From an uncultured Peptococcaceae bacterium (GTDB lineage Bacteria > Bacillota > Peptococcia > Peptococcales > Peptococcaceae), in the NCBI GenBank assembly GCA_910585405.1, contig CAJUDO010000012.1:16105-80104 (forward strand): 64,000 bases of DNA. The letters are read 5' to 3'. Positions within the stretch are counted from its first letter, which is position 1; each line of letters begins with the position of its first letter. The position numbers and the translations under genes are program-made. Below the pieces are notes generated by a model. That model had not been told where the DNA came from. It made no database searches and saw only the letters and a list, made by a program, of their open reading frames with translations. Below are positions 18,256-40,371 of the stretch, one piece after another.

Positions 18256-18525
18256 CGGACAATTGTATATGAATAAAGAGGCATTTTCAGAGATAAGTGG
18301 AAATGTCTTTTTATTATTCAGAGGCGTTTTTATGTTGAGAATATATAAAAGAAAATTGGATATGTAAAGATTAAGAAAGACATGAAGGACAAACTGTTAT
18401 TTAACATAGAGATTTTGAAAATATAAAAATAAAGAATTGCCTGTCTTTATAACTATTTATTTTTTATACTATATGTTATAATTTTCATAATGGATTGTTT
18501 GTAACGGAAAAAAGGAGGACGGCAA

Positions 18526-19062: not shown

Positions 19063-19175
19063 AAGCAGAAAAATGTAAAATTGCTTGTCATAGTATACAA
19101 ATGTATTGTAGAATAAGATATTCAAAGGATTAAAACAAAAATAGTAAAATTTTGAGAGAGGATGGGGAAGCTTCT

Positions 19176-20717: not shown

Positions 20718-20733
20718 AGAAGGATTGCATATT

Positions 20734-21039
20734 ATGGCTGATTTGGAACAGAAATTCAAATTAGAACTTGAAGATAAAATGCGCAGAGCAAAAAAAGAAT
20801 GCCAATACAATCCGACCCGGTTTAATCAGATGCTTTCAAAGTACGGAGCCGTAGAAACAGCCAAACGACTAATTTCCAACGCAAAGAAAACCGGAATTGT
20901 TTCCGATGGGTTTACAACATTGTATTTGTGTGGTCGTTTAGATTTAACTGTGGAACATTCCGTATGCAAGAAAGAGTATCAACCTCTTTTTTCATCGGAC
21001 GAAATTGCATATTGTGAGGAACTATTGAAAACCTCGTAG
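20734..21039 (+). CDS. Hypothetical 101-aa protein inside the guaA-end islet
   Basis: ATG at 20734 with an AAGGA RBS. No motif recognised. Confidence 0.45.
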   Translation: MADLEQKFKLELEDKMRRAKKECQYNPTRFNQMLSKYGAVETAKRLISNAKKTGIVSDGFTTLYLCGRLDLTVEHSVCKKEYQPLFSSDEIAYCEELLKTS

Positions 21040-21241
21040 TTGTATTTTTGCCCTTTGCATGGTAAAATAGCCCTATTCACTATTTGAGCAAACCCAATAT
21101 ATTTGTACTCCCGTTATCATATCTGATAACAATATGATAACAGCCCAATCGTATAGGCTGAATAATATGGATATATCAAATAATCAAAAGAACAGGGCAT
21201 TATATTTCCGAAGCAAAATCCGTTAGGATATGATGCCTAGC

Positions 21242-21256
21242 ATAGAGTTCGAATAA
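21242..21256 (+). repeat. Degenerate second copy of the guaA 3' end (direct repeat of 20703-20717)
   Basis: ATAGAGTTCGAATAA versus ATAGAGTTCGAGTAA, a 14/15 match. Both read IEFE-stop. Confidence 0.6.
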
Positions 21257-21336
21257 TTGTGGAAACGGCGCAAACTATATTGGTTGAGCGAAAAGTAACC
21301 CTTGAAAATAGGGTTTTGACATTAAAATGACATTAT

Positions 21337-21380
21337 AAAAGGGGAAGCGTTATGCAACCCCTTTTATTTTGCGTTTTTTT
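21337..21380 (+). terminator. Intrinsic terminator without an adjacent gene (probable ancestral guaA terminator)
   Basis: AAAAGGGG-13 nt-CCCCTTTT followed by a T-rich run. Confidence 0.55.
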
Positions 21381-22140
21381 TCTGGTAGTTTCCTTGAGAG
21401 CGGGTAGCTGGAGCGGAGTAGAGACTACTTTTATCAGGTTTTGAAGTGTGATAGAAAAAATATTTTCTGAAGGAGAGATATATGTACGCTGCTGTTTAAG
21501 ATGTTTATAAATTTTCTTGTTGGGCTATTTATGGTTTCAAGTTTAGTTTTCCATAGTGTTTTAGTAATATTTTCTACGTGGTACACGAGGAGGCTGGCTA
21601 GATATATTTTAATCAGTGCAGCAATAGCGTTCAATAATAATAGTTTCAAAAAATTTCTTTTAGGTTTTGAGCTATTGAGGTTTTTCCCTATATTGGAATG
21701 GACAAGGTCTTTCATTTCGTTCTGCCAATTTCATTACCGCTTGACGTTTTCGTGCTTCGCGCGTTATCTTGTTCATGAAAAGTCATTCTTTTGTGCTTTG
21801 TGGTTTGTGTGAACTTATAATACCACATTGGAATCGACTTCTCTTTTTGGGGCTCAAATCATTTTAACACATACATGCGCAATATATTTTTACTGAGAAT
21901 CTATGAATTGTTAAAATGCATTTGGCAGTACAAAATGAAAAAGAAGTTATAGTTAAACACTTGTGAAATCATGTAATTGATGTTATAGTAAAGTAAAAGA
22001 AGAAAGAAACTTCTTTCCTTGTTACACCACGAAAAAATAGTTCCATGGGTGAGAAAATAATTCTTTCTATCATAAATGAATTGAGAACAATATTTTGCAG
22101 CAGTGTGTATACTGCCAAAAGAAAAACAGGAGGCTGAATC

Positions 22141-22518
22141 ATGAGAACACAGGAATCGGGAGAAGATTATTTAGAAGCGATTTTGCTGCTGTATCGCAAG
22201 CAGGGCTATGTGCGTTCCACAGACATTGCCAATGCTATGAACTACACAAAAGCAAGTATCAGTCGCGCAGTAAGAATTTTAAAAGATGCGGATTATATCT
22301 ATTTGGATCCCAATAAAATGATCTTTCTCACAGAAAAAGGGGAAGCGAAGGCGTTGGAAATCTATGAGCGCCATCAGGTGATTGCAGAATATCTGGAAAA
22401 AGTGGTAGGCGTAGACCCCGAAACCGCTGACCAGGATGCCTGCCATATGGAGCATATTCTCAGCGATCAAACCTTCGACGGAATTAAGCGTTTGTTGAAA
22501 GAAGCGAAGGAAGCATGA
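22141..22518 (+). CDS. DtxR/MntR-family metal-dependent transcriptional repressor
   Basis: ESGEDYLEAILLL ... VRSTDIANAMNYTKASISRAV wHTH. AGGAGG RBS. Confidence 0.8.
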   Translation: MRTQESGEDYLEAILLLYRKQGYVRSTDIANAMNYTKASISRAVRILKDADYIYLDPNKMIFLTEKGEAKALEIYERHQVIAEYLEKVVGVDPETADQDACHMEHILSDQTFDGIKRLLKEAKEA

Positions 22519-23189
22519 GATATATCACAGATGCGCTGTACAAAAAAATGCAGTTATTTCATCTGCCAGTGGATGGGGATATGAGCTTAGCAGATGTGGA
22601 AGAACTATTTGGCATTGAAGCCGAAGATTTTTTGCTGCAGGAGTTATTGGCTCGGGATGATTGGTATGATACCTATTTGCCAGAGCCGCTACACAGCCGT
22701 TTGTTCGACAGTAATGGTGAGGTTAGTTTGCGGGATCTGGATGATAGCCTTTGGCAGGAGATTCTCCAATATCGGCAGAGCGTCGAACAGGAGTGGGCAC
22801 AGGCTGCGGCGCAGGCGCAGGAAGAAAAAAGAAAACTTATGACAGCTGCTCCCGAGTTGGGCGCTCTGGTGCAGCTAGATTTGCGTGACAGCGAGATTCG
22901 CAGTATTTCCGGGATTGACAGTGATAAGATACAAATTGAGCTTTATCCCCAGTGGGATTTAGGGAAAATTTTAGTGCTGTGCTTTACCGACGTGAAGGAC
23001 AGCTGGATGAGCCGGATGCATCCCGATGATGCCAACTGGTGGTTGGCGGATGAAATAGCCCTTGATGAAGAGCGTCCAGGGAGGTATACCTTGCAAGCAC
23101 TCTTTGGCAATGCCGATTTTGTAGGACAACTGCAATTTTCCTTTGCCGGAGTCACTATCAAGGAACGGGAAGACCCGCTGGAATATTAA
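22515..23189 (+). CDS. Hypothetical acidic protein, translationally coupled to the repressor
   Basis: ATGA overlap with the upstream gene. No motif securely recognised. Confidence 0.55.
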   Translation: MRYITDALYKKMQLFHLPVDGDMSLADVEELFGIEAEDFLLQELLARDDWYDTYLPEPLHSRLFDSNGEVSLRDLDDSLWQEILQYRQSVEQEWAQAAAQAQEEKRKLMTAAPELGALVQLDLRDSEIRSISGIDSDKIQIELYPQWDLGKILVLCFTDVKDSWMSRMHPDDANWWLADEIALDEERPGRYTLQALFGNADFVGQLQFSFAGVTIKEREDPLEY

Positions 23190-23198
23190 TCTTTTGGA

Positions 23199-23235
23199 AA
23201 AAAAGACGAATTACGCCATGAATTCGTCTTTTTTG
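23199..23235 (+). terminator. Intrinsic terminator
   Basis: GACGAATT-8 nt-AATTCGTC followed by T6. Confidence 0.7.
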
Positions 23236-23236
23236 T

Positions 23237-23266
23237 TTGACTTGATAAATTGGTATGTACTATAAT
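23237..23266 (+). promoter_or_regulatory. Sigma-A-type promoter of leuS (TTGACT-18 nt-TATAAT)
   Basis: Hexamers at 23237-23242 and 23261-23266. Confidence 0.5.
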
Positions 23267-23295
23267 ATGTCTTATATGATAGGGGGAGAATGCCA

Positions 23296-25767
23296 ATGAA
23301 TGAACGCTATGATTTTGCCAGTATCGAAAGCAAATGGCAAAAAAAGTGGGCTGAAGAAAAAACATATAAAGTGACAGAAGACAAAAGCAAACCAAAATAC
23401 TATTGTCTGGAAATGTTTCCGTATCCGTCGGGAAACCTGCACATGGGGCATGTGCGTAACTATTCTATCGGTGATGTCATCGCACGGTTTAAGACCATGC
23501 ATGGGTATAATGTACTGCATCCCATTGGTTGGGATTCCTTTGGCTTGCCAGCTGAAAATGCGGCTATCAAACACAAGACGCCGCCTGCCAAGTGGACCAA
23601 AGAAAATATTGCCAATATGAATCGCCAGCTGCATGCCATGGGCTTGAGCTATGACTGGGACCGGGAAGTAACGACCTGTCTGCCCGAATATTATAAATGG
23701 ACGCAATGGTTTTTCCTGCAGTTCTACAAAAAGGGTCTGGCCTACAAAAAAGGCGCTTCGGTGAACTGGTGTCCGGGATGTCAGACAGTGCTGGCCAATG
23801 AACAGGTGGTAGAAGGAAAATGCGAGCGCTGCGACAGTGTAGTAGAGAAAAAATCTCTGGAGCAGTGGTTCTTCAAAATTACAGAATATGCGGACCGCCT
23901 GTTGAAAGATTTGGACAAACTGCAAGGCTGGCCTAATAAAGTGCGCGTCATGCAGGAAAACTGGATTGGCCGCAGCGAAGGGGCAATTTTGCGTTTTCCG
24001 GTGCAGGAAAGCGACGATATCATTGAAGTATTCACCACTCGCCCTGACACGGTGTTTGGGTTGAGTTATATGGTACTGGCGCCGGAGCATCCATTGGTGG
24101 AGAAACTGATTGCTGGCACCAAATATGAGGCGGACGTGCGCGCATTTGTGAAAGAAGTTCAGCAGATGACAGAAGTGGAACGAGTATCCACAGAATTAGA
24201 GAAAAAAGGAATTTTCATCGGCGCCCATGTAGTTAGTCCCGCGGACGGTAAAATCGTACCAATCTTAGTGGGGAACTATATTATTTATGAATACGGCACC
24301 GGTGCTGTTATGGGCGTACCAGCTCATGATGAACGAGATTTTCTGTTTGCGAAAAAGTATGACCTGCCTATCACCATCGTGGTTATGCCCGAAGGGAAAG
24401 AACTGCGCGTAGAGGATATGACAGAGGCCTCCAAAGAAAACGGCATTATGGTCAATTCCGGGCAGTTTAACGGCATGAAAAACGAAGACGCCAAAAAAGC
24501 CATCGTTGACTACCTGGCCGAAAAGGGCATGGGCGAGATGAAGGTCAACTTCCGCCTGCGCGACTGGTTGATTTCCCGTCAGCGCTTCTGGGGCGCACCC
24601 ATTCCCATTATTTATTGCGACCATTGCGGTACGGTACCAGTGCCGGAGGAGCAGCTGCCAGTTATGCTGCCCCATGATGTAGATTTCAAACCAACAGGAG
24701 AATCTCCATTAAAATATATGGAAGAATTCGTGAATACCACTTGTCCTATCTGCGGTCGTCCTGCACGCAGGGAGACAGACACCATGGATACCTTTGTGTG
24801 CTCCAGCTGGTACTATCTGCGTTACACCGATGCGCGCAACGACAAAGAAGCCTTTGCCAAGGAAAACGCAGACCACTGGATGAATGTAGACCAATATATC
24901 GGCGGTGTAGAACATGCCATTCTGCATTTATTGTATGCGCGGTTTTTCACCAAAGTACTCTATGATATGGGCTTAGTCAGTGTCGATGAGCCGTTCCAGA
25001 ATCTGCTCACCCAGGGTATGGTGCTCATGGACGGCAGCAAGATGTCCAAATCCAAGGGCAACATCGTCAGTCCTGAGGCAATTATTGATAAATTCGGCGC
25101 AGATACTGCCCGCCTGTTTATCCTGTTTGCTGCACCGCCGGAACGGGATTTGGAATGGAATGATCAGGCTGTAGAAGGCTGTTATCGGTTTATCAATCGC
25201 GTGTGGCGCCTTGCCTATGACTATGTACAGAGTCGTGGCGGTGAGAACGCAGAAGCTGGCGAATTGAGCAGAAAAGATAAAGATATGCGCCGTCTAGTAC
25301 ACACCACCATCAAACGGGTGACCGATGATGCAGGTACACGATTCAACTTTAACACAGCAATCAGCGCAATTATGGAGCTGGTGAACGGCTTGTATCAGTA
25401 TCGGGAAGTGGCAGACTACAACAAAGCAGTGATGGCAGAAGCGGTAGATACGCTGGTGCTGCTTTTGGCGCCGTTTATTCCCCATGTGACAGAAGAGCTG
25501 TGGCAGGATTTAGGTCATGGAGAGAGCGTACACAAGCAAAAATGGCCTGTTGTAGACGAAGCGGCGCTGGTGGCTGACGAAGTAACAGTGATTGTCCAGG
25601 TAAATGGCAAAGTACGGGATAAAATCTTGATGCCGGTAAATCTCGATAAGGCAGAGACAGAAAAAATGGTATTGGCACAGCCAAAAATTGCCGAAATCCT
25701 TACAGGAAAGGAAGTGAAAAAGGTTGTTGTGGTACCGAATAAATTAGTCAATGTTGTAGTAGGCTGA
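23296..25767 (+). CDS. leuS: Leucyl-tRNA synthetase
   Basis: HMGH (HIGH-type) and KMSKS motifs plus class Ia architecture. The second ATG (23296) is better spaced from the GGGGGAG RBS than 23290. Confidence 0.95.
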
Positions 25768-26169
25768 GCACATGTTTTCAAAACCGACAGGGATGAGTGG
25801 TGCAGCTTTGGAAAGCAGTGTCGCTGACACAAGCAAACCTGCCGACAACGAAACGTCGGTATAATAAAATATCAGGAAGTATAATGAAAAAGCGGAAGGA
25901 ATCTCTTTGCAGATACCTTCTGTTTTTTACAGCTCTTTATATAACAGAAGTAGCTTTTACAATGAATATGAGCTTTTATATTTAGGAGGGAAGAATTGCT
26001 TGATTTGTGATACTGGTAATTTACAGGAGAGTGTAAGCGTAAAGAAAGGTATAAATGAGAATAAAGTATTTGAGTTTGTTCCAAACCAAAAGATAAGTAT
26101 CTTTATTTTGTTATCTGTTAAAATGAAACAAGAAAAAAGATATTAATAATTTTAGGTGGTGACAAAATT

Positions 26170-27081
26170 TTGCGTATTGAACAATTAGAATATATGATGG
26201 AAGTGTCAAAAGTTTCTTCACTGACTACAGCTGCAGAAAATTTATATATGACACAGTCGGCTTTAAGTCGTTCTATTAAAGCTTTAGAGGAAGAGTTGGG
26301 TGGATGTTTGTTAGAGCGTAATTCAGAGGGAGTCTCTTTAACTCAGGCAGGAAAAGAGCTTTTAGGAGATATGGAGCATATACTAAAAGAAATAGATATT
26401 TTCCGTGAGAAGGCATCTGTTATTTTTGAGACAAGTAAGAAATCTAAAGAAAGTATGGAACTAGTTATTTATTCTTTAAGCGGAATTATAGATGCATTAT
26501 TTCCAAAAACCTTAAAACTTTTCAATCGAAAATATAAGAATGTGAAGATTCGAGTTAAAACGGTAATGTTATTGGAGGCGGTTGAATTAATAAATAGTAG
26601 TTGTCAAGGTGTAATTATCATTAATAACTTGAATTCTATTTGGGATAGCGAGTTAGAAAAAAGTGAAAAAGCTTGTAAATTACTATTTGTAGAACAATAT
26701 GCAGTGGTTATGAGAAAAGATTCTTTTTTGGCGAGGAAAAACTTTTTAACAAAAGAAGAGTTAGTGGACTATAAATGTATTATGCATCATAATGGTATGG
26801 ATTATGATGCATTCTTAAATCGCAATACAAACAAAGAAGAAAAATTTGATATATTGTTATGTAGTAATAATCCTGAAGTGGTAAAAGATATGATCTTGGA
26901 ATACAATGCAGTGTACATAGCTGCAAATACAGTTGTGAAAAATTTCTATAGCAATTATTCTGAATTAGTGTCGGTTCCATTGAAAACGGGTAGAGGAGCA
27001 TTGTATGCGATATATGATGAAAAAATTGATAATGTTCCATTAATTGATGAATTTTTAGACTGCATAAAAAAAGCAAGATAG
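26170..27081 (+). CDS. LysR-family transcriptional regulator (TTG start)
   Basis: wHTH VSSLTTAAENLYMTQSALSRSIKALEEELG. Same strand and immediately upstream of the permease-GRE-SDR genes. Confidence 0.8.
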   Translation: MRIEQLEYMMEVSKVSSLTTAAENLYMTQSALSRSIKALEEELGGCLLERNSEGVSLTQAGKELLGDMEHILKEIDIFREKASVIFETSKKSKESMELVIYSLSGIIDALFPKTLKLFNRKYKNVKIRVKTVMLLEAVELINSSCQGVIIINNLNSIWDSELEKSEKACKLLFVEQYAVVMRKDSFLARKNFLTKEELVDYKCIMHHNGMDYDAFLNRNTNKEEKFDILLCSNNPEVVKDMILEYNAVYIAANTVVKNFYSNYSELVSVPLKTGRGALYAIYDEKIDNVPLIDEFLDCIKKAR

Positions 27082-27085
27082 CGAG

Positions 27086-27122
27086 AACCTATGTCAAAAT
27101 AATAGTTGGCATAGGTTTTTTT
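27086..27122 (+). terminator. Intrinsic terminator
   Basis: AACCTATG-16 nt-CATAGGTT followed by T7. Confidence 0.65.
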
Positions 27123-27336
27123 ATGGACTTTTAATAACAATTAAGGTATGAAAAAAAAGAATAGGTGACAGGGGGAATACATGAATAATAAGAATTTCAC
27201 ACTTAGAGAAAAGAATGATAAACTAAATTTATCGTTAACGAGAATTTATGAAAAAAGAGGAGGAAGATAGAACTTTAAAAATTTACAAAATGAAATTTGC
27301 ACACAATAATCATAATTTGCGTTAGGAGTGAATTTT

Positions 27337-28722
27337 ATGTCAGTTTCTCAAAACGATAAAATGAAGATTGATAAGAAAATATTTGCTTGGATTGTGGCAA
27401 TTTTTGTTCCAATAGTTATTTTGTTAATTCCAGAAACAGAAATCTTCAGCTTACAAATTAAGTTGTTCCTTGCAATTACGGTGTTTGGTATTGTAGTGAT
27501 GTGTTTTGAATTAATGGATTACATGGTGCCGGCTTTGTTGATACCGTTAGCATATTATTTATGTAAAGTTTCTTCGGCTGCAGTTGCATTTGGAGCATGG
27601 ACAAGTTATTTGCCTTGGATGTTTCTAGGAATGTTTATCATTACAGAATGTTTTGAAAGAATTGGTTTAATTTCAAGAGTTGCTTATTGGTGTGTTGTAA
27701 AAATTGGTGGTGGTTTCAAAGGATTGGCAATTTCTGTGCTTGTTGCAGGTATTATTTTGTCTTTGGTGTTGCCTGGAGGAAATGCGTTTGTACCTCTAGC
27801 GATGTTTGTCTTGGGCATTTGCCGTGCAAACGGCTGGGAATGCACAAAAGAATCTACAGTTTTAATGATGTATGCTATGTTAAGTACGTACACAGCCTCA
27901 AAGTTTTTATTGGGTCCGTCATTTCTTCTGATGGCTGGAATGGTTGGTGTTACAGAAGGAGTTACTTTTTTTAGGTTCTTATATCATAGTGCAATTTTTA
28001 TAGTATGGATGATATTGATAGCTTTATTAATTTGGTTTTTAATTAAACCAGAGGGCAATATGCATTCCCAAAAGTATTTTGTTGAAAAATATAAAGAAAT
28101 GGGCAAAATGTGTAGTGACGAAAAAAAAGGTAGTTTTGTGGCGATTCTTTTAGTATTAGGGATTTTTACAATGTCTATTCATAAAATTGATATGGGTTGG
28201 TTATTTGTTCTAGGAGCATGTTTATTATATTTTCCAGGGATTAAAATTGGTCATGCTGAAGACATAAAAAAGGTGAATTTTACAATGCCATTTTTTGTAG
28301 CAGCCTGTATTTCTATTGGGAATGTTGCTACCAGTTTGGGAATTGGACAGATTATTGCAGATTTAGTTGTCCCACATATGGAAGGCTTGAGTATAACAGG
28401 AGTATATTTGTGTATTTGGTTCTTTTTATGTGTAGCTAATTTTGTCATGACACCATTTGCCTTGATTGCTTCTTTTACGGTGCCTGTGGTTGATATTACG
28501 AGTAGTATGGGAATTCCTGTTTTACCCACGTTATATTGTTTTGGGTATGCTACCAGTCAAATATTATTGCCATATGAATATGTTGCATATTTGCTGATGT
28601 TCTCATTTGGGACAATGACGATGAAAAATTTTGTAAAAGTTTATGGAAGCAAATTGGCACTGAGCGGGATATTTCTGGCATGTTGCGTAATACCATATTG
28701 GAAGTTTATTGGAATTTTATAG
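27337..28722 (+). CDS. ArsB/NhaD-superfamily (SLC13/DASS-like) anion permease
   Basis: About 12-14 TM, 461 aa, with a central hydrophilic loop. Overall resemblance to anion/dicarboxylate permeases. Family call is tentative. Confidence 0.55.
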   Translation: MSVSQNDKMKIDKKIFAWIVAIFVPIVILLIPETEIFSLQIKLFLAITVFGIVVMCFELMDYMVPALLIPLAYYLCKVSSAAVAFGAWTSYLPWMFLGMFIITECFERIGLISRVAYWCVVKIGGGFKGLAISVLVAGIILSLVLPGGNAFVPLAMFVLGICRANGWECTKESTVLMMYAMLSTYTASKFLLGPSFLLMAGMVGVTEGVTFFRFLYHSAIFIVWMILIALLIWFLIKPEGNMHSQKYFVEKYKEMGKMCSDEKKGSFVAILLVLGIFTMSIHKIDMGWLFVLGACLLYFPGIKIGHAEDIKKVNFTMPFFVAACISIGNVATSLGIGQIIADLVVPHMEGLSITGVYLCIWFFLCVANFVMTPFALIASFTVPVVDITSSMGIPVLPTLYCFGYATSQILLPYEYVAYLLMFSFGTMTMKNFVKVYGSKLALSGIFLACCVIPYWKFIGIL

Positions 28723-28750
28723 TGGTGGGAAAAAACAAGGAGGAATTATT

Positions 28751-31231
28751 ATGGAATGTTGTGTTAAAAAGTTAACTTTAACTCCACAAGAACATTGGCA
28801 TTTAAATGGAGTATATCCAGAGATGCAAGAACGGCAGAGAGCATTTCGTATTTATGAGAAAATTAGAAATTGTCCTGTTACAGTAGATATGTATCGTGCA
28901 CGGCTATTTACAGAATCATTTAAGTTGACAGAGGGGCAACCGCTTCATTGGCGATGGGCACAAGCATTAATGCATATTGCGGAAAATATGCCAATTGTAA
29001 TAGATGAAGATGATGTTATCGTGGGAAAAATGACAGGCAAAATGGGACGTTATGCGGTAGTTTATCCTGAATTGGAAGGCCCGACATTATTGGATTTAGA
29101 AAATGCATATGATAGACCATCAAGTCCGGTGAAAATTTCGAGCGAGGACTTGAAAATACTAAAAGAAGAAATCTATCCTTATTGGAAAGATCGAAGTTTT
29201 GCTCAAGATTTTGCAGGAAATCTGCCAGAGGAAACAAGAAGACTGTTATATGGTGATGATCCTAAAAATTTTAGTCCTATGAGTTCTATGATAGGGCAAA
29301 CGGCGACGACAAGATCTACATTAAATTTTAATTTTAATTATGAGTATTTACTTAATCGTGGTATAGCAGCGTTACGTAAGGAATCGGAAATGCATATAAC
29401 AAAAATAGAAAGCGAACCAGCGTTAATTGCCGAAAAAAAATCATTTGTAGATGCCGCACTTTTAACTTGGGATGCATTTAGTTTATTTATAGAGCGGTAT
29501 GGTTTGGAAGCTGAGCGTTTGATAGGGACTGAAAGAAGGGAAACACGCAAGGAAGAATTAAAGGAAATTGTTGATTGTTGTTTATGGATTGCGCATAATG
29601 CTCCAAGAACTTTTAAAGAAGCACTACAATTACAGTGGTTCGTTGTAGTTTTTGCATGTCTAGAGCAGAAAATAGGAGCAGCTTTAGGTAATGGACGCAC
29701 AGATCAACATTTGTATCCATTTTATAAAAATGATATAGAAAATGGCAGATTGACACGTGAAGAGGCAAAACGTTTATTTGAGTATTACTGGTTAAATATG
29801 GCTCAGAATCCGATGGTGCCATTGACCAATTCTGCATCTAAGTCGTTTGAAGCATATGCACATTTCGAAACCGTTACGATTGGTGGAGTTGATAAAAATG
29901 GTAATGATGCAACAAATGAGTTATCTTATGTTATTTTAGAATCTAAAAGAGGCTTTCCGATTCCATATCCAGATTTAGCGGCTAGAATTCATTCTGGAAC
30001 ACCAGATAAATTTTTAAAAGCTTGCTGTGAGGTTATTAAAGATGGGCAAGGATTTCCTAAGTTGTTAAATGATGAAGAAATTGTTCCGTTATATGTTGCT
30101 AAAGGTGCAACGTTAGCGGATGCCTATAATTATGCTTGTTCTGGTTGTACAGAAGTTCGTATTTTTGATAAGGAGACGTATATTACGGGTGGAGGATCTG
30201 TTAATTTAGGTGCCATCATTGAAACGGCATTACACAACGGGCGGATGAAAGTAAAAGGAGAGAAACCAATTGGCGTAGAGACAGGAGACCCTAAAGATTT
30301 TGATAGTTTTGAAAAATTTTATAATGCGATAAATATACAAATGAAGTATGCTTTGAAAAACTTAATTATTCAACAAGTAGTTGCAGAAAAGGTAAAGGCG
30401 AAAAAATTAGCTGCTCCGTTTTGTTCCGTTATGACGAAAGCTTGTAGAGAGCAAGATATTGATATTCACCAATATGTACCAAACAGTTTTAGAACAGCAA
30501 ATATAAATCTAATTGGATATGCTACCTACATCAATTCAGTAGTGGCAATAAAAAAATTAGTATTTGAAGATAAGAAATATACAATGGCAGAGATTCTTGA
30601 AGGAATAGATGCAAATTTTGATGGGTATGAAGTTATGCGACAAGAATTATTACACGCTCCAAAATATGGAAATAATGATAATTATGCCGATTCAGTGGGA
30701 TTAGCCTTAGATAGAGAGGTACAAGAATATTTGGCACAGCATAGGGGTGCTTATGGAGAAATTTTCGAAACAAGAGTAATTCCTATTACTGGACATATCT
30801 CTTATGGTTGGCTAGTACAAGCGACACCAGATGGGAGATTGGCAGGTACGCCTCTTTCGGAAGGCACTGCTGGATCCGCTGGCACAGAAAATAACGGCCC
30901 AACAGCGATTTTACTTTCAAATAAAAAAGTAAAAAATGAAGGGTATGCAGAACGCGCAGCAAGATTATTAAATATTAAATTTAGTCCAAGTGTTGTAGCA
31001 GGAGATGAAGGAACGAGACGTCTGATGTCATTTATTCGTACGTGGTGTGACCTAAAGTTATGGCATGTACAATTTAACATTGTGAATAAAGAGACAATGT
31101 TAAAAGCACAAAAAGATCCAGAGAATTATAAAGATTTAATTGTACGTGTAGCTGGATATAGTGCTTACTTTACAGAGATGACAAAAAAATTGCAGGATGA
31201 AATTATTGAACGTGCAGAATTTGATGTGTAA
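28751..31231 (+). CDS. Glycyl-radical enzyme, PFL2/eliminase (dehydratase/lyase) class
   Basis: C-terminal glycyl-radical motif LIVRVAGYS (Gly codon 31154-31156). Cys loop CSGCTEV with the Cys-x-Glu pair (Cys codon 30146-30148). About 826 aa. AAGGAGG RBS before the ATG at 28751. Confidence 0.9.
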   Translation: MECCVKKLTLTPQEHWHLNGVYPEMQERQRAFRIYEKIRNCPVTVDMYRARLFTESFKLTEGQPLHWRWAQALMHIAENMPIVIDEDDVIVGKMTGKMGRYAVVYPELEGPTLLDLENAYDRPSSPVKISSEDLKILKEEIYPYWKDRSFAQDFAGNLPEETRRLLYGDDPKNFSPMSSMIGQTATTRSTLNFNFNYEYLLNRGIAALRKESEMHITKIESEPALIAEKKSFVDAALLTWDAFSLFIERYGLEAERLIGTERRETRKEELKEIVDCCLWIAHNAPRTFKEALQLQWFVVVFACLEQKIGAALGNGRTDQHLYPFYKNDIENGRLTREEAKRLFEYYWLNMAQNPMVPLTNSASKSFEAYAHFETVTIGGVDKNGNDATNELSYVILESKRGFPIPYPDLAARIHSGTPDKFLKACCEVIKDGQGFPKLLNDEEIVPLYVAKGATLADAYNYACSGCTEVRIFDKETYITGGGSVNLGAIIETALHNGRMKVKGEKPIGVETGDPKDFDSFEKFYNAINIQMKYALKNLIIQQVVAEKVKAKKLAAPFCSVMTKACREQDIDIHQYVPNSFRTANINLIGYATYINSVVAIKKLVFEDKKYTMAEILEGIDANFDGYEVMRQELLHAPKYGNNDNYADSVGLALDREVQEYLAQHRGAYGEIFETRVIPITGHISYGWLVQATPDGRLAGTPLSEGTAGSAGTENNGPTAILLSNKKVKNEGYAERAARLLNIKFSPSVVAGDEGTRRLMSFIRTWCDLKLWHVQFNIVNKETMLKAQKDPENYKDLIVRVAGYSAYFTEMTKKLQDEIIERAEFDV

Positions 31232-31250
31232 AAATGAATGAGGTGTTTAT

Positions 31251-32075
31251 ATGGGAAAACTGGATGGAAAAATAGCGCTTGTGACTGGAGGCAGTCAAGG
31301 GTTAGGAAAAGGAATTGTTGAAGCTTTTTTGTTAGAAGGAGCGAAGGTTGCTTTTTGTGGGAGAAATATGGAAAAGTTAAAAAAGGTTGAAGCACATTTT
31401 AAGACTTTAGGCGATGTCTATGCGATACAATGTGATGTCAGCGATAGTTCAGACGTAAAAAAAATGTTTGCTCAAATAGCTGCACATTACGGAACCTTGG
31501 ATATATTAGTTAATAATGCAGGAAAAACTGGAGGAAGAAATTTACCAAATAATGACAGAGAAAATTATTTTAAGTTGAAAGAGAATGGATGTGAAAAATT
31601 TTCCTTAGAAATTACAAAAAACATGACTGATAGGGAATGGGATGAAAGCGTCAAAATTAATTTATATGGAACGTTTTATTGCACTAGGGAAGCCTTAAAA
31701 ATTATGGAGCAAAAAAAATATGGAAAAATTATAAATGTAGTTTCTACAGGCGGAATTGATAATACTAGCCCACATTCTCCAAACTATGTTGCAGCAAAAG
31801 GTGGAGTAGTAGCATTTACGAAAAATCTAGCAGTGGAAGTTATCGGTGCAGGTGTAATTGTAAATGCCATTGCTCCAGGCGCTATTATGTCAGAGGGGTA
31901 TGATAGGGTCTTAGCATCAGCTGGTGATGACTTTAAAAATAGGTTGTTGAAAGCAATTCCGGCTGGAAGGTTAGGAACTGTGCAAGAACATGCTTCTTTA
32001 GTTGTGTATTTAGCTAGCGATGAAGCAAATTATATTGTAGGGCAAATAATAGCTGCTAATGGTGGGGTATGTTAG
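31251..32075 (+). CDS. SDR-family NAD(P)-dependent oxidoreductase with an atypical insertion
   Basis: TGGSQGLG cofactor motif, NNAG, catalytic YVAAK. About 24 extra residues between NNAG and the following helix. Confidence 0.85.
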   Translation: MGKLDGKIALVTGGSQGLGKGIVEAFLLEGAKVAFCGRNMEKLKKVEAHFKTLGDVYAIQCDVSDSSDVKKMFAQIAAHYGTLDILVNNAGKTGGRNLPNNDRENYFKLKENGCEKFSLEITKNMTDREWDESVKINLYGTFYCTREALKIMEQKKYGKIINVVSTGGIDNTSPHSPNYVAAKGGVVAFTKNLAVEVIGAGVIVNAIAPGAIMSEGYDRVLASAGDDFKNRLLKAIPAGRLGTVQEHASLVVYLASDEANYIVGQIIAANGGVC

Positions 32076-32540
32076 GTTAGTGCGTAATTGATTTAGGAAT
32101 TTGTTCGCACTTTCCAGCCAGTATAAACGGAGATAAATAATGAAACTGTTTCAGGTATGAAATAAAAATAATATAAGATTTATGAATCATTATAAATGGG
32201 CAGAGCCGGGTTTTTTGGTTCTGCTCATAGTTATATTATTACGGTATTTTCAAAATGTATTAAAAAACTGTCCTGTTAGCTAACTCTTATAGATTCTTGA
32301 GATAATTTTATTTTTTATGGAAAAAATCTTGTATTTCTAATTTTGATTTTGTAAAAAATAATGTGGACGCGGGACAAGTTTATATATGGTGATGGATTCA
32401 TAATAGAAGTTAAAATATGGATATTATCTATACTTCTGAGTAAACAATGAAACCTTTGAATACATAGTATATTTTTCACCAAATAGTTCTTTATTAGGAA
32501 AAGAAAGAGGAATCCTCTTTTTGCTGCCGAATCTTCTTAT

Positions 32541-33440
32541 GTGGATAACATATGCAAATCAAAAGGGGCGAGTGGTGTGGTGAAGGAATGGTGCCGACAC
32601 AGAAAGCTGCGAATGTTTCAGGTCATGATGGGGCTGGGTTTGCTGGCAGGTGCGCTGTTGTGCTATAGCTTTTTTATAGAACCTTATCTGTTGGTTGTGC
32701 GGCATTATCAGATACAGGTGCAGGAAAGTGGTGAGGAGAGAGTGCGGCTGGTACAAATTTCTGATTTACAGTTGGGCGAAAATTATTCTTTGCAGCAGTT
32801 ACGCAAGGTCGTGAATAAAATACAAAAGCAGCGTCCTGATGTGATTATTTTCAGCGGCGATTTGTTTGAGGACTACAAGCTTTGCGGCGCGGAGCTGGAG
32901 GAAGATGTCACAGCGCTTTTGGGAGAACTGGAGGCGCCGCTGGGCAAATATGCGGTGTGGGGCAATCGGGATTACGGCGGCGGCGCAGAGCGGGCTTATC
33001 GGAGAATCATGCAGGCATCTGGTTTTCATTTGCTTTGCAATGCCTATGAAACGGTACAGCTTGCCGACGGACAAGAGATGTTGTTGTGCGGCCTGGATGA
33101 CAGTCTATTTGGTAAGCCGGACAGCAGTATTTTTGCAGAATTTGCTGGGCAGGAATCTAGTTATCGTATTCTGTTGCTCCATGAGCCGGACGTAGCGCAG
33201 CTGCTGAGCTATTCAGATTTTCATCTCATTCTTGCGGGGCACAGTCATGGCGGACAGGTGCGGTTGCCATTTTTCGGCGGTTTGAAGACGGTACTGGCGC
33301 AGGAATATGTGCGCCATTTCTATACGCTGAATGAAAAAACAGGTCTACGGCTATATGTGAATACCGGATTGGGCACTTCTCATCTTGCGGTGCGTTTTGG
33401 CGTACCTCCGGAAATTGCCGTGTTTGAGATACAGCTTTGA
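32541..33440 (+). CDS. Membrane-anchored metallophosphoesterase (YkuE-like)
   Basis: ISDLQLG, GDLFED, GNRDYG and AGHSHGGQ calcineurin-like motifs. Start codon is uncertain (GTG at 32541 or later). Confidence 0.75.
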   Translation: MDNICKSKGASGVVKEWCRHRKLRMFQVMMGLGLLAGALLCYSFFIEPYLLVVRHYQIQVQESGEERVRLVQISDLQLGENYSLQQLRKVVNKIQKQRPDVIIFSGDLFEDYKLCGAELEEDVTALLGELEAPLGKYAVWGNRDYGGGAERAYRRIMQASGFHLLCNAYETVQLADGQEMLLCGLDDSLFGKPDSSIFAEFAGQESSYRILLLHEPDVAQLLSYSDFHLILAGHSHGGQVRLPFFGGLKTVLAQEYVRHFYTLNEKTGLRLYVNTGLGTSHLAVRFGVPPEIAVFEIQL

Positions 33441-33530
33441 TAAAAAATGCAGTGAAACAGGCTCTAGGGACATTTTGTCTGCATATATAATATTGTTATA
33501 GTATTTTTATCCGTTTCTCTTGTTAATTCT

Positions 33531-35273
33531 ATGAAAATAGATTATAATATAGAGGTTAGTTTGGTCGGTGCAATATCAAAAATAGTAAGGAGGTTTCTGG
33601 TCATTAAGAATAAAAATTATGATGGCGTCAGTATTATTCCTTTGGGCGGATTGGGTGAAATCGGGAAAAATATGACAGCAATCAAATGTAACAATGAAAT
33701 TCTTATTATCGATGCCGGGCTGATGTTTCCGGAAGAAGAATTGCTGGGCATTGATATCGTAATTCCCGATCTCAGTTATTTACTGGAAAACAGGGACATG
33801 GTAAAAGGGGTAGTGATTACACACGGACATGAAGATCATATCGGTGGTCTGCCCTATTTGCTGCGAGAAATAAACGTACCTGTTTACAGCATGAAGCTTA
33901 CGATCGGTTTAATTGAGGCAAAACTAAAAGAGACGACATTTGTGAACGTTCCTCGTTTACATGTGGTCAGACCGCGGCAGGAGTTTAAGGTGGGATCATT
34001 TCGGGTTGAATTGGTACGTACCTGCCATAGTATTCCTGATGCGGTGGCGGTGGCGGTGCATACGCCTTACGGGATTATTTTCCACTCTGGAGATTTTAAA
34101 TTTGACCAAACGCCGATTGATGGCCATGCTATAGACTATCAACGTATTGCGGAGTTGGGAAATAAGGGCGTGCTGGCCTTTTTGTCTGACAGCACCAATG
34201 TGGAGCGGCCCGGATACAGTACATCGGAAAAAACCGTGGGCGAGAATTTTGATAATATTTTCCGCTCAGCCAAGGAGCGCATTGTGATTGCAACTTTTGC
34301 TTCCAATGTGCACCGGATTCAGCAGGTGATCAATGCTGCCTGTCAGTATGGCCGGAAGGTGGCGATTGCTGGACGCAGCATGGTGAATATTGCAAATGTA
34401 TCTCAGGAACTGGGGTATTTGCAGGTGCCGCCAAACACGATTATTGAGCTGGATGAGTTGGATCAATATCCGCGCAATGAGGTCGTTTTGCTCACGACAG
34501 GCAGTCAGGGCGAGCCCATGTCTGCACTGACTCGTATGGCCATGTCCGATCATCGCCGGGTAAAAATTGAAGAGGGCGATACGGTAATTCTTTCAGCTTC
34601 ACCCATTCCGGGCAACGAGAAATTGGTGTCCCGCGTAATTGATATGCTGTACCGTTTGGGTGCAAGGGTGATTGCCGGTTCCAACAACGGTGTGCATACT
34701 TCTGGGCATGCCTGCAGAGAAGAATTAAAAATGATGATTAATTTGGTAAAGCCCAAGTATTTCATTCCGGTGCACGGCGAATATCGTATGCTGGTGAAGC
34801 ATAAACAGCTGGCGGTAGAAGTAGGGATGCCGGAAGAAAATGTGTTTATCGCGGAGAATGGCAGTGTGATTGAGTTGAATGACCAAAAAGGCGCCATTAC
34901 CGGAAAAGTAACCGCTGGGCGGGTATTGATTGACGGCTTGGGTGTAGGCGATGTAGGCAATATTGTATTGCGTGACCGCAAGCAACTATCACAGGATGGG
35001 ATTTTGATTGTGGTCGTGACGCTGGATCGCCAGAATCATGCCATTGCCGCAGGGCCGGATATTGTATCGCGGGGCTTTGTGTACGTGCGGGAGGCGGATG
35101 AGCTGATGGCCGGTGCCAAGGAGCGCGTGACGCAGAGTCTGGAAAAATATCTGGAGCGCAATATTGTGGATTGGTCCAGCTTGAAAAGCGGTTTGCGGGA
35201 TAGCTTGAGCAAATATCTTTATGAAAAAACGCGACGTAGACCGATGATTTTACCGATCATTCAAGAAATCTAA
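33531..35273 (+). CDS. rnj: Ribonuclease J
   Basis: Metallo-beta-lactamase HGHEDHIGG, beta-CASP and C-terminal domains. The true start is probably near 33597-33603 (see finding). Confidence 0.9.
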   Translation: MKIDYNIEVSLVGAISKIVRRFLVIKNKNYDGVSIIPLGGLGEIGKNMTAIKCNNEILIIDAGLMFPEEELLGIDIVIPDLSYLLENRDMVKGVVITHGHEDHIGGLPYLLREINVPVYSMKLTIGLIEAKLKETTFVNVPRLHVVRPRQEFKVGSFRVELVRTCHSIPDAVAVAVHTPYGIIFHSGDFKFDQTPIDGHAIDYQRIAELGNKGVLAFLSDSTNVERPGYSTSEKTVGENFDNIFRSAKERIVIATFASNVHRIQQVINAACQYGRKVAIAGRSMVNIANVSQELGYLQVPPNTIIELDELDQYPRNEVVLLTTGSQGEPMSALTRMAMSDHRRVKIEEGDTVILSASPIPGNEKLVSRVIDMLYRLGARVIAGSNNGVHTSGHACREELKMMINLVKPKYFIPVHGEYRMLVKHKQLAVEVGMPEENVFIAENGSVIELNDQKGAITGKVTAGRVLIDGLGVGDVGNIVLRDRKQLSQDGILIVVVTLDRQNHAIAAGPDIVSRGFVYVREADELMAGAKERVTQSLEKYLERNIVDWSSLKSGLRDSLSKYLYEKTRRRPMILPIIQEI

Positions 35274-35291
35274 AAAAGTATGTCCTATGGA

Positions 35292-35338
35292 AAGCACCCT
35301 GCAGTGGCTGATACAAGTCGCTGCAGGGTGCTTTTATA
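35292..35338 (+). terminator. Intrinsic terminator after rnj
   Basis: AAGCACCCTGCAG-16 nt-CTGCAGGGTGCTT followed by TTATAT. Confidence 0.65.
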
Positions 35339-35495
35339 TGGTGAAAAGATTTTTTTCGGTGTTGTGCCTGTGTGCAAGATTTTTTGGGATAGCTATTGCA
35401 AAACGCCAAGACAAGGATTTTTTTTTCGCATAAAAACAGGCGACTTCTTTCATACTATGGATGCAATATTTTTGTTGTGCAGAGGAGGAGATTGC

Positions 35496-36182
35496 ATGTC
35501 AGAGGAAGAAGTACAAGAACCAGAGGTATTATTGGAGAATTACGGGACCACGGCGTTGCCTGCTGCGTCAGATGCCCCCATTCATTGTCTCACTATCATC
35601 GGTCAGATTGAGGGGCATATGATTTTGCCCCAAAACAATAAAACGACCAAATATGAACACTTGATTCCCCAGTTGGTAGCCATTGAACAGGATGAAAAGG
35701 TAAAAGGCGTTTTGATTGTGTTGAATACTGCTGGCGGTGATGTAGAGTCAGGTTTGGCCATTGCGGAGGCCATTCGCGGCTTGAGCAAGCCTAAGGTGTC
35801 TATTGTGATGGGCGGCGGACACAGTATTGGCGTGCCCATTGCAGTGGCCAGCGACTATTCTTTTATTGCGCCCAGTGCGACGATGACTATTCACCCGGTA
35901 CGACTTACTGGTATGGTGATTGGTGTGCCGGCTACCATGGAATATATGGAGCGGATGCAGGACAGAGTGGTGGCCTTTGTGACGGCCAACTCTCATATTG
36001 ACGAGCAGACTTTTCGGCGTCTGATGCTTACAGTGGGCGAATTGTCTCAAGACATTGGCACTGTGATTGTGGGCAAAAAGGCGGTGGAATATGGTCTGAT
36101 TGATGAGGTGGGCAGTATTCACGAGGCAATGCATAAGCTGAATGCGCTGATTAATGAGCGGGAGGCTGCGTGTCATGACTGA
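35496..36182 (+). CDS. tepA: ClpP-fold protease family protein (TepA-like)
   Basis: GQIEGH ... [15 protein letters not shown] ... MGGGHSIG. rnj-tepA-ylzJ order as in Bacillus. GGAGGAG RBS before the ATG at 35496. Confidence 0.75.
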
Positions 36183-36402
36183 TGTATATTATACGCTGAT
36201 GCCGCCCCAGATGGTTTTTTTTGATGAGAAAGCGGTTCCTGAAAGTCAGTTGCTTTGTTATAAAGGTGTCAATTTGTATGCCCGTCCCTATGACGCCAGT
36301 CATTATCAGATTACGGGACTGTGCACGACCAATCCGAAGTATTATTTGTCAAGGGAACTGCAGCCCGGTGCATTGATTCCCATCTTGGGAAAAAGCAGAT
36401 GA
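36175..36402 (+). CDS. YlzJ-like small protein
   Basis: [17 protein letters not shown]-terminus. Position directly after tepA. Confidence 0.5.
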
Positions 36403-36481
36403 AATCATAGTTCCATTGCTGAAGAAGTATGATATAATAAAGTGATATTTTAGTTGAGCGCGGAGGGAGGAGAGCATAGAG

Positions 36482-37765
36482 ATGGTATGGGAAACAGGGC
36501 ATGATACTGCGGAACAAAAGGAACGGGCTGTGCTGGTGCTGCTACCGGAGTCTAAGGACCGCTGGCAGGAAGAGGACATGCTGCAGGAGTTGACGGAATT
36601 AGGCAGAACGGCAGGCCTGGATGTGGTGGATCATGTGATTCAGCATCGCAGTGTGCCGGACGCAGCGTATTGCATCGGCAGAGGAAAGCTGGAAGAGGTA
36701 CGGCAGTTATGCTTGACCTGGGATGCGACCTGTGTTGTATTTGACCGATCTTTGTCTCCCTCGCAGTTGTACAATATAGGTAAGGCGCTGGATTTGAAAG
36801 TACTGGATAAGACGATGCTGATTCTGGATATTTTTGTGCAGAGAGCCCGCAGCCGCGAAGGCAAGCTGCAGGTAGAACTGGCCCAGGCCAATTATCTCTT
36901 GCCGCGGCTTTTAGGCCAGGGGATGAATTTGTCCCGGCAGGGCGGCGGCAGTAAAGGTGGTGTGGGCAACCGCGGCCCTGGTGAGACCAAGCTGGAGACC
37001 GACAGGCGTCGGATACGGCAGCGGATTCAGATGGTGGAGCGGGAGCTCAAAGAGGTGCGGAAACAACGGGCGGTACAGCAAAAGAGCAAGCTGAAAGGCG
37101 GTCTGCCCTTGATTTCGCTGGTGGGATATACCAATGCGGGAAAATCTTCGCTTTTAAATACGCTTACCGACGAACAGATTTATGCGGAAGATCAATTGTT
37201 TGCGACGCTGGATCCTACAACACGGGCTTTTTATCTACCTGGTGGCAGCAAGGCGCTGCTTACCGACACGGTAGGCTTTATTCGCGATTTGCCGCCGCAG
37301 CTGATAGAAGCTTTTAAGGCTACGTTGGACGAGTTGCAGTATGCGGATTTATTGCTGCATGTGGTGGATCTCAGCAATTCCAATTTTCAGAATCAGCTGC
37401 AGGAGGTGGAGGAGATTCTCCTGCAGTTGAATCTGCAGGAAAAGCCGCGGATTTTTGTCTTTAACAAAATTGATATGCTGGACGAACTGCCGTCTGTAGG
37501 TCAGGGCTTGGAGCGGGAGAGCTGCTGCTATGTGTCGGCGGTCTCTGGGCAGGGGATTCCTGCGCTGTTGGAGATGATGGAAGCCCGGCTGATCAAGACT
37601 GTTAGCTGTAAGGTGCAGCTGCCTGTGGCAGAAGGACGTCTGCTGTACAAAGCTTATGAGACGGGAAGTGTCCGTGATCTGGAGTATACGGAAGCGGGTA
37701 TTTGCTTTACATGGAGTGGCAGAGGGGAGAAGATACCTCCCGAATTTGCAGAATTCTGTCTGTAG
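36482..37765 (+). CDS. hflX: GTPase HflX
   Basis: HflX N-domain, G1 GYTNAGKSS, DTVGF. Confidence 0.9.
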   Translation: MVWETGHDTAEQKERAVLVLLPESKDRWQEEDMLQELTELGRTAGLDVVDHVIQHRSVPDAAYCIGRGKLEEVRQLCLTWDATCVVFDRSLSPSQLYNIGKALDLKVLDKTMLILDIFVQRARSREGKLQVELAQANYLLPRLLGQGMNLSRQGGGSKGGVGNRGPGETKLETDRRRIRQRIQMVERELKEVRKQRAVQQKSKLKGGLPLISLVGYTNAGKSSLLNTLTDEQIYAEDQLFATLDPTTRAFYLPGGSKALLTDTVGFIRDLPPQLIEAFKATLDELQYADLLLHVVDLSNSNFQNQLQEVEEILLQLNLQEKPRIFVFNKIDMLDELPSVGQGLERESCCYVSAVSGQGIPALLEMMEARLIKTVSCKVQLPVAEGRLLYKAYETGSVRDLEYTEAGICFTWSGRGEKIPPEFAEFCL

Positions 37766-37849
37766 CATTGGGCTGTATTGCTGCGGACAGCGGCAAAAGT
37801 GCATAAAGAGTTTGAAAATTCATATACTATAGAACGAGGTAAGTAGCAA

Positions 37850-39118: not shown

Positions 39119-39148
39119 TGGGAAAGCACAGCAGAGGGGTGGATTGCA

Positions 39149-40234: not shown

Positions 40235-40269
40235 ATGGAATATAGCTTCTTTTTATCTGGGAAATTCTG

Positions 40270-40315: not shown

Positions 40316-40371
40316 GGAAATTATTTTTTGATATAGGTGCATCGTGAATGAAATGATAACGGAGGATGATT

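Follow-up and report, generated by a model that had tools for sequence, protein, structure and literature searches.

Glycyl radical enzymes (GREs) require a radical S-adenosylmethionine (SAM) activating enzyme, or activase, which is usually encoded beside the GRE. The 64,000-nt stretch of DNA from an uncultured Peptococcaceae bacterium analyzed here (the window, to whose positions all coordinates refer) carries a GRE gene without such a neighbor in an AT-rich island, together with genes for a LysR-family transcriptional regulator, a permease of the divalent anion:Na+ symporter (DASS, SLC13-like) family, and a classical short-chain dehydrogenase/reductase (SDR), all four on the same strand between leuS and a phosphoesterase gene (Table 1). 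The locus raises the question of what this enzyme acts on, how it could acquire its radical, and how the island came to lie where it does. The gene content reported in an earlier sequence-only reading agrees with the open reading frames (ORFs) and their Pfam matches. We place the GRE, by sequence, in an uncharacterized clade of the sulfonate C-S lyase family, sister to the characterized lyases, and consider that the island is probably a LysR gene plus a DASS-GRE-SDR operon for the uptake and desulfonation of a small hydroxy-sulfonate, with the GRE activated in trans. Designations of clades (A, B, and C), loci (L numbers), and proteins (P numbers) are internal to this analysis.

Phylogenetic placement and active site of the island GRE

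The GRE fold of the 826-aa protein is beyond doubt (E=1e-230). Matches to the PFL-like (PF02901, 538 bits) and Gly_radical (PF01228, 95 bits) Pfam families lie far above the cut-offs, and the RVAGYS glycyl loop and G-C-T-E cysteine loop that the sequence-only reading had pointed out are present as VRVAGYS (Gly802) and SGCTE (Cys466, Glu468), so that both the domains and the motifs of the GRE superfamily are found. Among solved structures, the protein scored highest against IseG (5YMR, 770 bits), IslA (7KQ3, 750 bits), and HpsG (6LON, 749 bits), and reached about 455 bits each against HypD (6VXC, 457 bits) and CutC (9F3W). It is 43-45% identical to IslA, IseG, and HpsG, which are mutually 61-73% identical, and its closest database relatives share 57% identity with it. 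In a neighbor-joining tree rooted on HypD (100 bootstraps), all three characterized enzymes fell into clade B (99/100), whereas the island GRE grouped with P0002-P0036, except P0035, in clade C (100/100); neither clade C nor clade A (100/100) has a characterized member. The sequence-only reading had allowed that the enzyme might cluster tightly with a characterized GRE or have a defective Gly/Cys context; its separate clade and modest identity speak against the former, and on alignment the catalytic Gly, Cys, and Glu are intact.

The C466-T-E468 loop aligns with C468/E470 of IslA, C466/E468 of IseG, and C462/E464 of HpsG, and the Glu of this C-x-E motif serves GRE 1,2-eliminases as the general base for the substrate hydroxyl (PMC13450708). 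The motif had previously been read as the mark of a 1,2-eliminase. The eliminase type is retained here on the strength of family placement, but the motif alone is insufficient for it, as C-x-E is also present in decarboxylase GREs. In the characterized lyases, an Arg-Gln-Arg triad binds the sulfonate, and Gln193, both arginines, Glu470, and Val680 are essential in IslA (PMC13450708; PMC8473560; PMC6453916). Both sulfonate-binding arginines are kept in the island GRE (Arg188, Arg675); the triad is incomplete in that its Gln is replaced by Asn192, and this Asn is invariant across clade C. Given this replacement, the enzyme may differ from IslA in its substrate or even in its leaving group. The positions that strictly discriminate clades B and C include Q193N, W374F, and A376T (IslA numbering), in or beside the active site, and a few further ones outside the active-site residues named in the cited papers. 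The Phe typical of isethionate enzymes (IslA 682/IseG 680), which packs against the C2 substrate, is not found in the island GRE, which has Ile679 (cf. HpsG Ile676).

The NCBIfam model NF048011, named "(2S)-3-sulfopropanediol dehydratase," assigns the island GRE 993 bits, just below its cut-off of 1000, and gives 1556 bits to IseG, 1485 to IslA, 1505 to HpsG, and 1026-1050 to clade C relatives; it also just admits clade A proteins. Because the isethionate lyases IseG and IslA score as high as HpsG, the model is family-wide and substrate-unspecific, and its name is no evidence of function for clade C proteins. The model appears to be mistaken in its specificity and also misnamed: HpsG is a sulfolyase and not the dehydratase HpfG.

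A recurrent module around clade C enzymes

Clade C loci were collected by profile searches of genome and metagenome contigs, the metagenome search adding at least 4 of them; their hosts include Desulfobacterales and Desulfovibrionaceae among the matches listed. A GRE, the SDR, a LysR regulator, and a DASS or TRAP transporter occur together in L006 and L103 (GRE, GRE, SDR, LysR, DASS, MFS, activase), L008 and L009 (GRE, TRAP, SDR, activase, LysR), L012 (LysR, GRE, TRAP, SDR, activase), L102 (GRE, SDR, LysR, DASS, preceded by an activase and a second GRE in divergent orientation), L107 (LysR, GRE, activase, DASS, SDR), L109 (DASS, GRE, SDR, the gene order of the window), and L112 (GRE, SDR, LysR, DASS, MFS, and a second GRE, with no activase in 16 kb). 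Smaller sets are found in L004 (GRE, DASS, LysR, activase), L010 (aminotransferase, GRE, TauE, DASS, LysR, TauE; the available flank holds no activase), and L104 (LysR, GRE, DASS; no activase lies in the 10 kb to each side). Because the gene set is repeated across clade C loci, LysR-DASS-GRE-SDR is a recurrent module and not a chance neighborhood, which bears out the earlier treatment of the flanking genes as a pathway set.

Several of these loci contain genes pertinent to sulfonates. Two TauE/SafE genes adjoin the GRE of L010, and L112 has a NIR_SIR sulfite-reductase-like gene 2.5 kb upstream. The TRAP binding protein encoded in L008 comes nearest to the isethionate-binding IseP (211 bits, next match 133) and differs from it at Tyr153, Trp200, Asn217, Ser242, and His244; because these five residues contact the ligand or belong to the hinge, the comparison suggests a ligand related to but different from the isethionate-type ligand of IseP. 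A cysteate-sulfopyruvate-sulfolactate route, prompted by the aminotransferase gene of L010, was not adopted, L010 having no SDR.

The island permease matches Na_sulph_symp (PF00939, 77 bits, cut-off 27) over residues 16-463, in agreement with the SLC13-like anion permease named by the sequence-only reading, and CitMHS with 43 bits, as a DASS/SLC13 protein (TC 2.A.47); against the stricter TIGR00785 it scores 67 bits, below the cut-off of 198.6, and no relative was found in the PDB. Its orthologues (34-52% identity) stand beside clade C GREs in L004, L006, L010, L102, L104, L107, L109, and L112. The regulator has both LysR-type domains (HTH_1, 1.6e-18; LysR_substrate, 1.1e-13), and no NCBIfam equivalog reaches its cut-off on this protein.

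The SDR matches adh_short (174 bits) and PF13561 and has the elements of a classical SDR, namely TGGSQGLG at residue 12, NNAG at 88, and Y179VAAK, with an insert of ~28 aa after NNAG; Arg38 in "FCGR" suggests NADP(H) as the cofactor. Searches of PDB and NCBIfam returned only generic FabG-type matches, all below cut-offs. Orthologues with the ~28-aa insert (47-62% identity) lie beside GREs in L006, L008, L009, L012, L013, L018, and L019, as well as in L024, L102, L103, L107, L108, L109, and L112, and form one orthologous group. Their partners are clade C GREs and, from clade B, the GREs with Val or Leu at the position of IslA Phe682 (L013, L018, L024); the SDR orthologue is found beside Val-, Ile-, or Leu-type GREs only and never beside Phe (isethionate-type) GREs. 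Because of this distribution, and because Ile679 matches HpsG Ile676, the data point to a C3-type rather than a C2 substrate or product.

Variants of the catalytic residues were seen among the homologues. In L019:9956-12430 (Desulfitobacterium sp. Sab5, NZ_CP172056.1), P0075, P0097, and P0119, Thr replaces the catalytic Cys (T-G-T-V-E-H for G-C-x-E) and the Gly loop reads VAGYN; the gene of L019 lies directly upstream of the insert-bearing SDR, and the close relatives P0050 and P0062 retain Cys. A subgroup nested in clade C, comprising L104:10001-12475 and L105 (the P0031-P0036 group; gut metagenomes, 54 blocks), has Asp for the catalytic Glu (N-G-C-I-D-P) and YQF for YAHF, and its LysR-GRE-DASS genes lie near TRAP, two Amidohydro_3, and arylsulfotransferase genes.

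Comparison with known sulfonate-cleaving systems

A 2026 review of GREs lists IslA, IseG, and HpsG as the only C-S cleaving members, acting on two substrates (PMC13450708), and full-text searches of the literature yielded no description of a GRE-SDR sulfonate cluster and none of a GRE linked to sulfolactate. HpsG, the (S)-2,3-dihydroxypropanesulfonate (DHPS) sulfolyase of Bilophila wadsworthia, is a full-length homologue of the island GRE (43% identity) that shares with it GCTE, the Gly loop, both sulfonate-binding arginines, an Ile where isethionate enzymes have Phe, and a location in a transporter-linked catabolic cluster. The two differ in clade, and the triad Gln187 of HpsG is replaced by Asn, its Trp by Phe, and the Ala of YAHWEA by Thr; moreover, HpsG has its activase, HpsH, next to it as well as a TRAP transporter, and the literature texts searched describe no SDR partner for it, whereas the island combines a DASS permease and a conserved SDR with no activase in the window. 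IslA and IseG, sulfite-lyases of isethionate and the best-scoring solved structures, have the same catalytic architecture and Arg pair, but the island GRE departs from IslA at Phe682 (Ile), Val680 (Ile), Gln193 (Asn), and Trp374 (Phe), is without a microcompartment or an adjacent activase, and would fall outside the "IseG cluster" (>~60% identity, invariant Arg-Gln-Arg; PMC6453916). An SDR beside a sulfonate-cleaving step is likewise known from HpsO/HpsP, the DHPS 2-dehydrogenases of the aerobic HpsNOP pathway, and from the sulfoacetaldehyde reductase IsfD. HpsO is assigned to PF13561 (PMC13335735), which the island SDR shares; no specific sequence relationship emerged, and the ~28-aa clade-specific insert sets the island SDR apart.

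These comparisons bear on the reading that the GRE is functionally a known enzyme, acting either on (S)-DHPS as a sulfolyase in the manner of HpsG or on isethionate as a sulfite-lyase, that the SDR reduces hydroxyacetone or acetaldehyde, and that only the missing activase is new. The correspondence of Ile679 to HpsG Ile676, the presence of the same SDR family beside the clade B Val/Leu GREs, and the NF048011 score just under the threshold, which several clade C relatives pass and are named after, are what this reading would lead one to expect. NF048011 is unspecific, however, and places IseG, IslA, and HpsG ~500 bits above the island GRE, which belongs to a separate, fully supported clade; Gln193, Trp374, and Ala376 are exchanged for Asn, Phe, and Thr in or beside the active site, and the IseP-like binding protein of clade C deviates at five of the ligand-contacting or hinge positions. 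We therefore regard identity with a known enzyme as unlikely, though deserving serious consideration.

The activating enzyme

No activase was found in the window, as the sequence-only reading had stated: no ORF of >=100 aa has the activase-like N-terminal CxxxCxxC motif, and tblastn of the 64 kb with three cognate activases from the loci of relatives gave nothing below E=0.01. Most other large ORFs of the window are housekeeping genes by Pfam. Cognate activases in the loci of relatives have extra ferredoxin-like domains (Pfam Fer4 matches). In the sister species L091, two genes for radical-SAM proteins lie upstream of leuS; they were considered as GRE activases and discarded, showing no similarity to the clade activases.

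That GRE genes almost always adjoin their activase, as had been assumed, holds for the family overall, but much less for clade C. Of the 48 GTDB-species loci of the family in the matches listed with 5 kb or more of sequence to left and right, an activase is present in 45, in 40 of them within 500 bp, whereas an activase is not nearby in about 4 of the 10 evaluable clade C loci among the matches listed; clade C loci without one include L010, L104, and L112. An unlinked activase is common in clade C. Two of the three activase-less loci among the 48 are from gut Peptococcaceae, L035:8199-14944 and L039 (MGYG-HGUT-00413, -04093). Their gene order is DASS, GRE, Amidohydro_2, beta-hydroxyacid dehydrogenase, and LysR, with no activase within 10 kb, and their GRE is 46% identical to the island GRE, with Asn at the triad Gln position and the Trp kept.

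Because L010, L104, L112, L035, and L039 also lack a nearby activase, activation of the island GRE in trans by an activase encoded elsewhere in the genome is plausible by analogy. Escherichia coli TdcE and GrcA are activated in trans by PflA. The likeness is that a GRE gene without its own adjacent activase depends on one encoded elsewhere; the difference is that TdcE and GrcA are of the PFL type and use the PFL activase, whereas the island enzyme is an eliminase-type GRE. Two clade C GRE paralogues lie in tandem or close together in L006/L103, L102, and L112, with one or no activase in the examined stretch, an arrangement consistent with one activase serving several GREs.

A strain-variable island of horizontal origin

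The island has a GC content of 0.337 compared with 0.442 in the rest of the window, in accord with the low GC reported earlier for the DNA between leuS and the phosphoesterase gene, and at third codon positions (GC3) its four genes range from 0.23 to 0.29 versus 0.42-0.60 in the flanking genes. In the conspecific strains L088-L090, with flanks 95% identical at the nucleotide level, leuS is directly followed by the phosphoesterase gene. By blastn, positions 8572-12633 of the empty-site locus L088 correspond to 21876-25928 of the window, and 12739-22472 to 32490-42222 (95% nucleotide identity); the island stands in place of ~105 bp of intergenic DNA in the island-free strains. The same empty junction is present in the sister species L091-L093 (leuS 90% identity). 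The island is a presence/absence polymorphism among strains of one species, and because the site is empty in both conspecific strains and sister species and GC3 is deviant, the island was acquired horizontally, as the sequence-only reading had proposed. At its ends, we found no direct or inverted repeats, no integrase or transposase, and no tRNA target (Rfam); of an integrative mobile island, it shows just two features, its presence/absence polymorphism and its deviant composition.

Hundreds of metagenome contigs contain leuS alleles with 99-100% amino acid identity, and among named relatives a Peptococcaceae metagenome-assembled genome is nearest (79%); the host would appear to be a highly prevalent uncultured gut Clostridia species. 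Exact alleles of the GRE were found in about 60 + 19 contigs, compared with several hundred contigs with 99% leuS alleles. A second island-bearing lineage (L096-L101) differs from the window by a synonymous divergence (dS) of 0.13-0.26 in flanking core genes, 0.05-0.06 in the permease, GRE, and SDR genes, and 0.36 in LysR (allele L096). Because of this contrast between LysR, the other three genes, and the core flanks, the history of the island is read as mosaic, and the island has probably moved between lineages by recombination. Along the nucleotide sequence, the LysR segment (26075-27565) differs by 6-11% between the two island lineages, and the permease-GRE-SDR stretch (27566-32065) by 1-2% (dS 0.05). 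A second strain-variable AT-rich stretch (20706-21876, GC 0.34-0.39) lies upstream of an Fe-dependent repressor gene; its neighbors vary among assemblies, L001 having type I restriction genes there, L002 and the window GMP synthase, and L088 a methionine-type ABC transporter.

Between the two island lineages (window versus L096-type), the ratio of non-synonymous to synonymous divergence (dN/dS) was 0.12 for the GRE (25 synonymous and 12 non-synonymous changes), 0.14 for the permease, 0.18 for the SDR, and 0.07 for LysR; housekeeping neighbor genes gave 0.015-0.08. The signal of purifying selection on all four genes argues for function. It has to be weighed against the possibility that the island is a non-functional, incompletely transferred fragment that arrived without an activase, is not activatable in this host, and is drifting toward loss. 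That possibility would account for the lack of an activase gene or remnant, for the presence of the island in a minority of conspecific contigs, and for three independent disruptions: a CAA>TAA change at 26605 (Gln146 stop) in LysR of strain L106, an uncompensated 1-bp deletion that frameshifts LysR in L097/L100, and an expansion of the A8 homopolymer of the GRE gene to A9 in L106, which splits the enzyme into 243 + 601 aa. However, the A9 frameshift could have arisen in assembly, the catalytic residues are all intact, ribosome-binding sites, promoter-like site, and terminator are kept, and other clade C loci are likewise without a nearby activase, so that unlinked activases appear normal there. 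Given these points and the low dN/dS of all four genes, we consider a dead fragment improbable.

Proposed function

The reading that we prefer, a LysR-controlled operon for uptake and cleavage of a small hydroxy-sulfonate, takes sulfonates as the substrate class because C-S lyases are the closest structures, both arginines are kept, and relatives have TauE, a sulfite-reductase-like gene, and an IseP-like protein; the "hydroxy-acid or sulfonate-like" substrate of the sequence-only reading is narrowed accordingly to a sulfonate. From these observations, we infer sulfite release and activation in trans, as well as the class of the substrate and the part played by the SDR. LysR would sense the substrate or a related metabolite and switch the operon on, and the DASS permease would import a small anionic hydroxy-sulfonate, the likeliest choice being a C3 compound such as DHPS or sulfolactate, ahead of isethionate. 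The glycyl radical at Gly802 would be installed by a radical-SAM activase whose gene lies elsewhere in the genome; it would generate a thiyl radical at Cys466, and this thiyl radical would abstract hydrogen from the carbinol carbon. Glu468 would deprotonate the hydroxyl and sulfite would depart from the adjacent carbon, with the sulfonate held by Arg188, Asn192, and Arg675. The NADP(H)-type SDR would then reduce the carbonyl product or else supply the correct hydroxy-sulfonate or stereoisomer. As substrates, (S)-DHPS, (R)-DHPS, sulfolactate, or another C3 sulfonate are possible on an equal footing. We advance more tentatively the narrower proposal that clade C GREs and the insert-bearing NADP-type SDR constitute an undescribed anaerobic desulfonation route in a highly prevalent uncultured gut Clostridia species, directed at a sulfonate that is neither isethionate nor (S)-DHPS, such as (R)-DHPS, 3-sulfolactate, or another C3 hydroxy-sulfonate, and relying on an unlinked, possibly shared activase.

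A different chemistry, namely dehydration (the C-O cleavage by which HpfG acts on DHPS) or the elimination of a group from an anion other than a sulfonate, for instance a hydroxy-dicarboxylate or 2-hydroxyethylphosphonate, imported through the divalent-anion transporter family, might be suggested by the loss of a sulfonate-triad member that is essential in IslA (PMC13450708), by the dicarboxylates, sulfate, and phosphate that DASS proteins typically transport (Pfam and TIGR00785 descriptions), and by the remark that the IslA pocket could accommodate hydroxyethylphosphonate (PMC8473560), but it is very unlikely in view of the two retained arginines, the TauE exporters, sulfite-reductase-like neighbor, and IseP-like binding protein of clade C loci, and the distance of the island GRE from the DHPS dehydratase HpfG (419 bits on NF048009).

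Several observations weigh against the desulfonation operon itself. The triad Gln, essential in IslA, is replaced by Asn; the 64-kb window contains no activase gene or remnant and no TauE or sulfite reductase gene; and the anions classically carried by DASS proteins are sulfate, phosphate, and di- or tricarboxylates. The selection signal may partly predate arrival in the present host, and because some strains have broken LysR or GRE alleles, the island may, as these alleles suggest, be dispensable or decaying in part of the population.

Organization of the island genes and other features of the window

The permease ORF opens at 27328, and its likely start is the ATG at 27337, which is preceded by an AGGAG ribosome-binding site. 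Similarly, the GRE ORF extends from 28709 (TTG) to 31231, with the real start at the ATG at 28751, which has AAGGAGG 7 nt upstream and yields the 826-aa form annotated in public assemblies. Because of the promoter-like site upstream of the permease gene, the terminator-like hairpin downstream of the SDR gene, and the short gaps between the genes (28 bp permease-GRE, 19 bp GRE-SDR), the arrangement suggests that permease, GRE, and SDR form one operon and that LysR is a separate transcription unit. The promoter-like site is a candidate operon promoter with weak support, such sites being in total no more numerous than in shuffled sequence, and the hairpin probably marks the operon end. An Rfam scan of the 64-kb window gave no match. 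Near the left end of the window lies an agr-like quorum-sensing pair composed of a GHKL-domain histidine kinase (270-1592) and AgrB (1589-2179).

Table 1. Features of the island and its flanks, with the active-site residues of the GRE aligned to IslA.
Feature	Position	Strand	Basis or remark
Strain-variable AT-rich island, 6561 bp	25929-32489	.	blastn vs empty-site locus L088
leuS, left flank, core genome	23296-25767	+	Pfam
LysR-family transcriptional regulator, 303 aa, TTG start	26170-27081	+	Pfam
Promoter-like site TTTACA-17-AATAAT, 5' of permease gene	27282-27310	+	Consensus scan, 10/12 matches
DASS (SLC13-like) permease, 461 aa	27337-28722	+	Pfam
GRE, 826 aa, clade C	28751-31231	+	Pfam, PDB, tree
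GRE Arg188 codon	29312-29314	+	IslA Arg189
GRE Asn192 codon	29324-29326	+	IslA Gln193
A8 homopolymer within GRE gene	29426-29433	+	Allele comparison
GRE Phe372 codon	29864-29866	+	IslA Trp374
GRE Thr374			IslA Ala376
GRE Cys466 codon	30146-30148	+	IslA Cys468
GRE Glu468 codon	30152-30154	+	IslA Glu470
GRE Arg675 codon	30773-30775	+	IslA Arg678
GRE Ile677			IslA Val680
GRE Ile679 codon	30785-30787	+	IslA Phe682
GRE Gly802 codon	31154-31156	+	IslA Gly805
Classical SDR oxidoreductase, 274 aa	31251-32075	+	Pfam adh_short, motifs
Terminator-like hairpin, 15-bp stem, 3' of SDR gene	32196-32228	+	Sequence scan
Metallophos phosphoesterase, right flank, core genome	32541-33440	+	Pfam; adjoins leuS in island-free strains

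Implications

What is new here is a well-supported uncharacterized sister clade of the known sulfonate lyases with an altered sulfonate triad, an SDR partner of its own, and activase linkage that is often lost, encountered in a strain-variable island of a widespread uncultured gut bacterium. Genome-mining rules that demand adjacency of GRE and activase are affected, since the eliminase-type GREs of clade C are often without a linked activase, and the NCBIfam label "(2S)-3-sulfopropanediol dehydratase" covers more proteins than it should. Many GRE clades have yet to be assigned, and clade C provides a lead for enzymology and for gut sulfur metabolism. Sulfite from organosulfonates feeds hydrogen sulfide production in the gut; if the substrate of the island enzyme is new, gut sulfite would have one more source, for which the island would serve as a marker at the level of strains.

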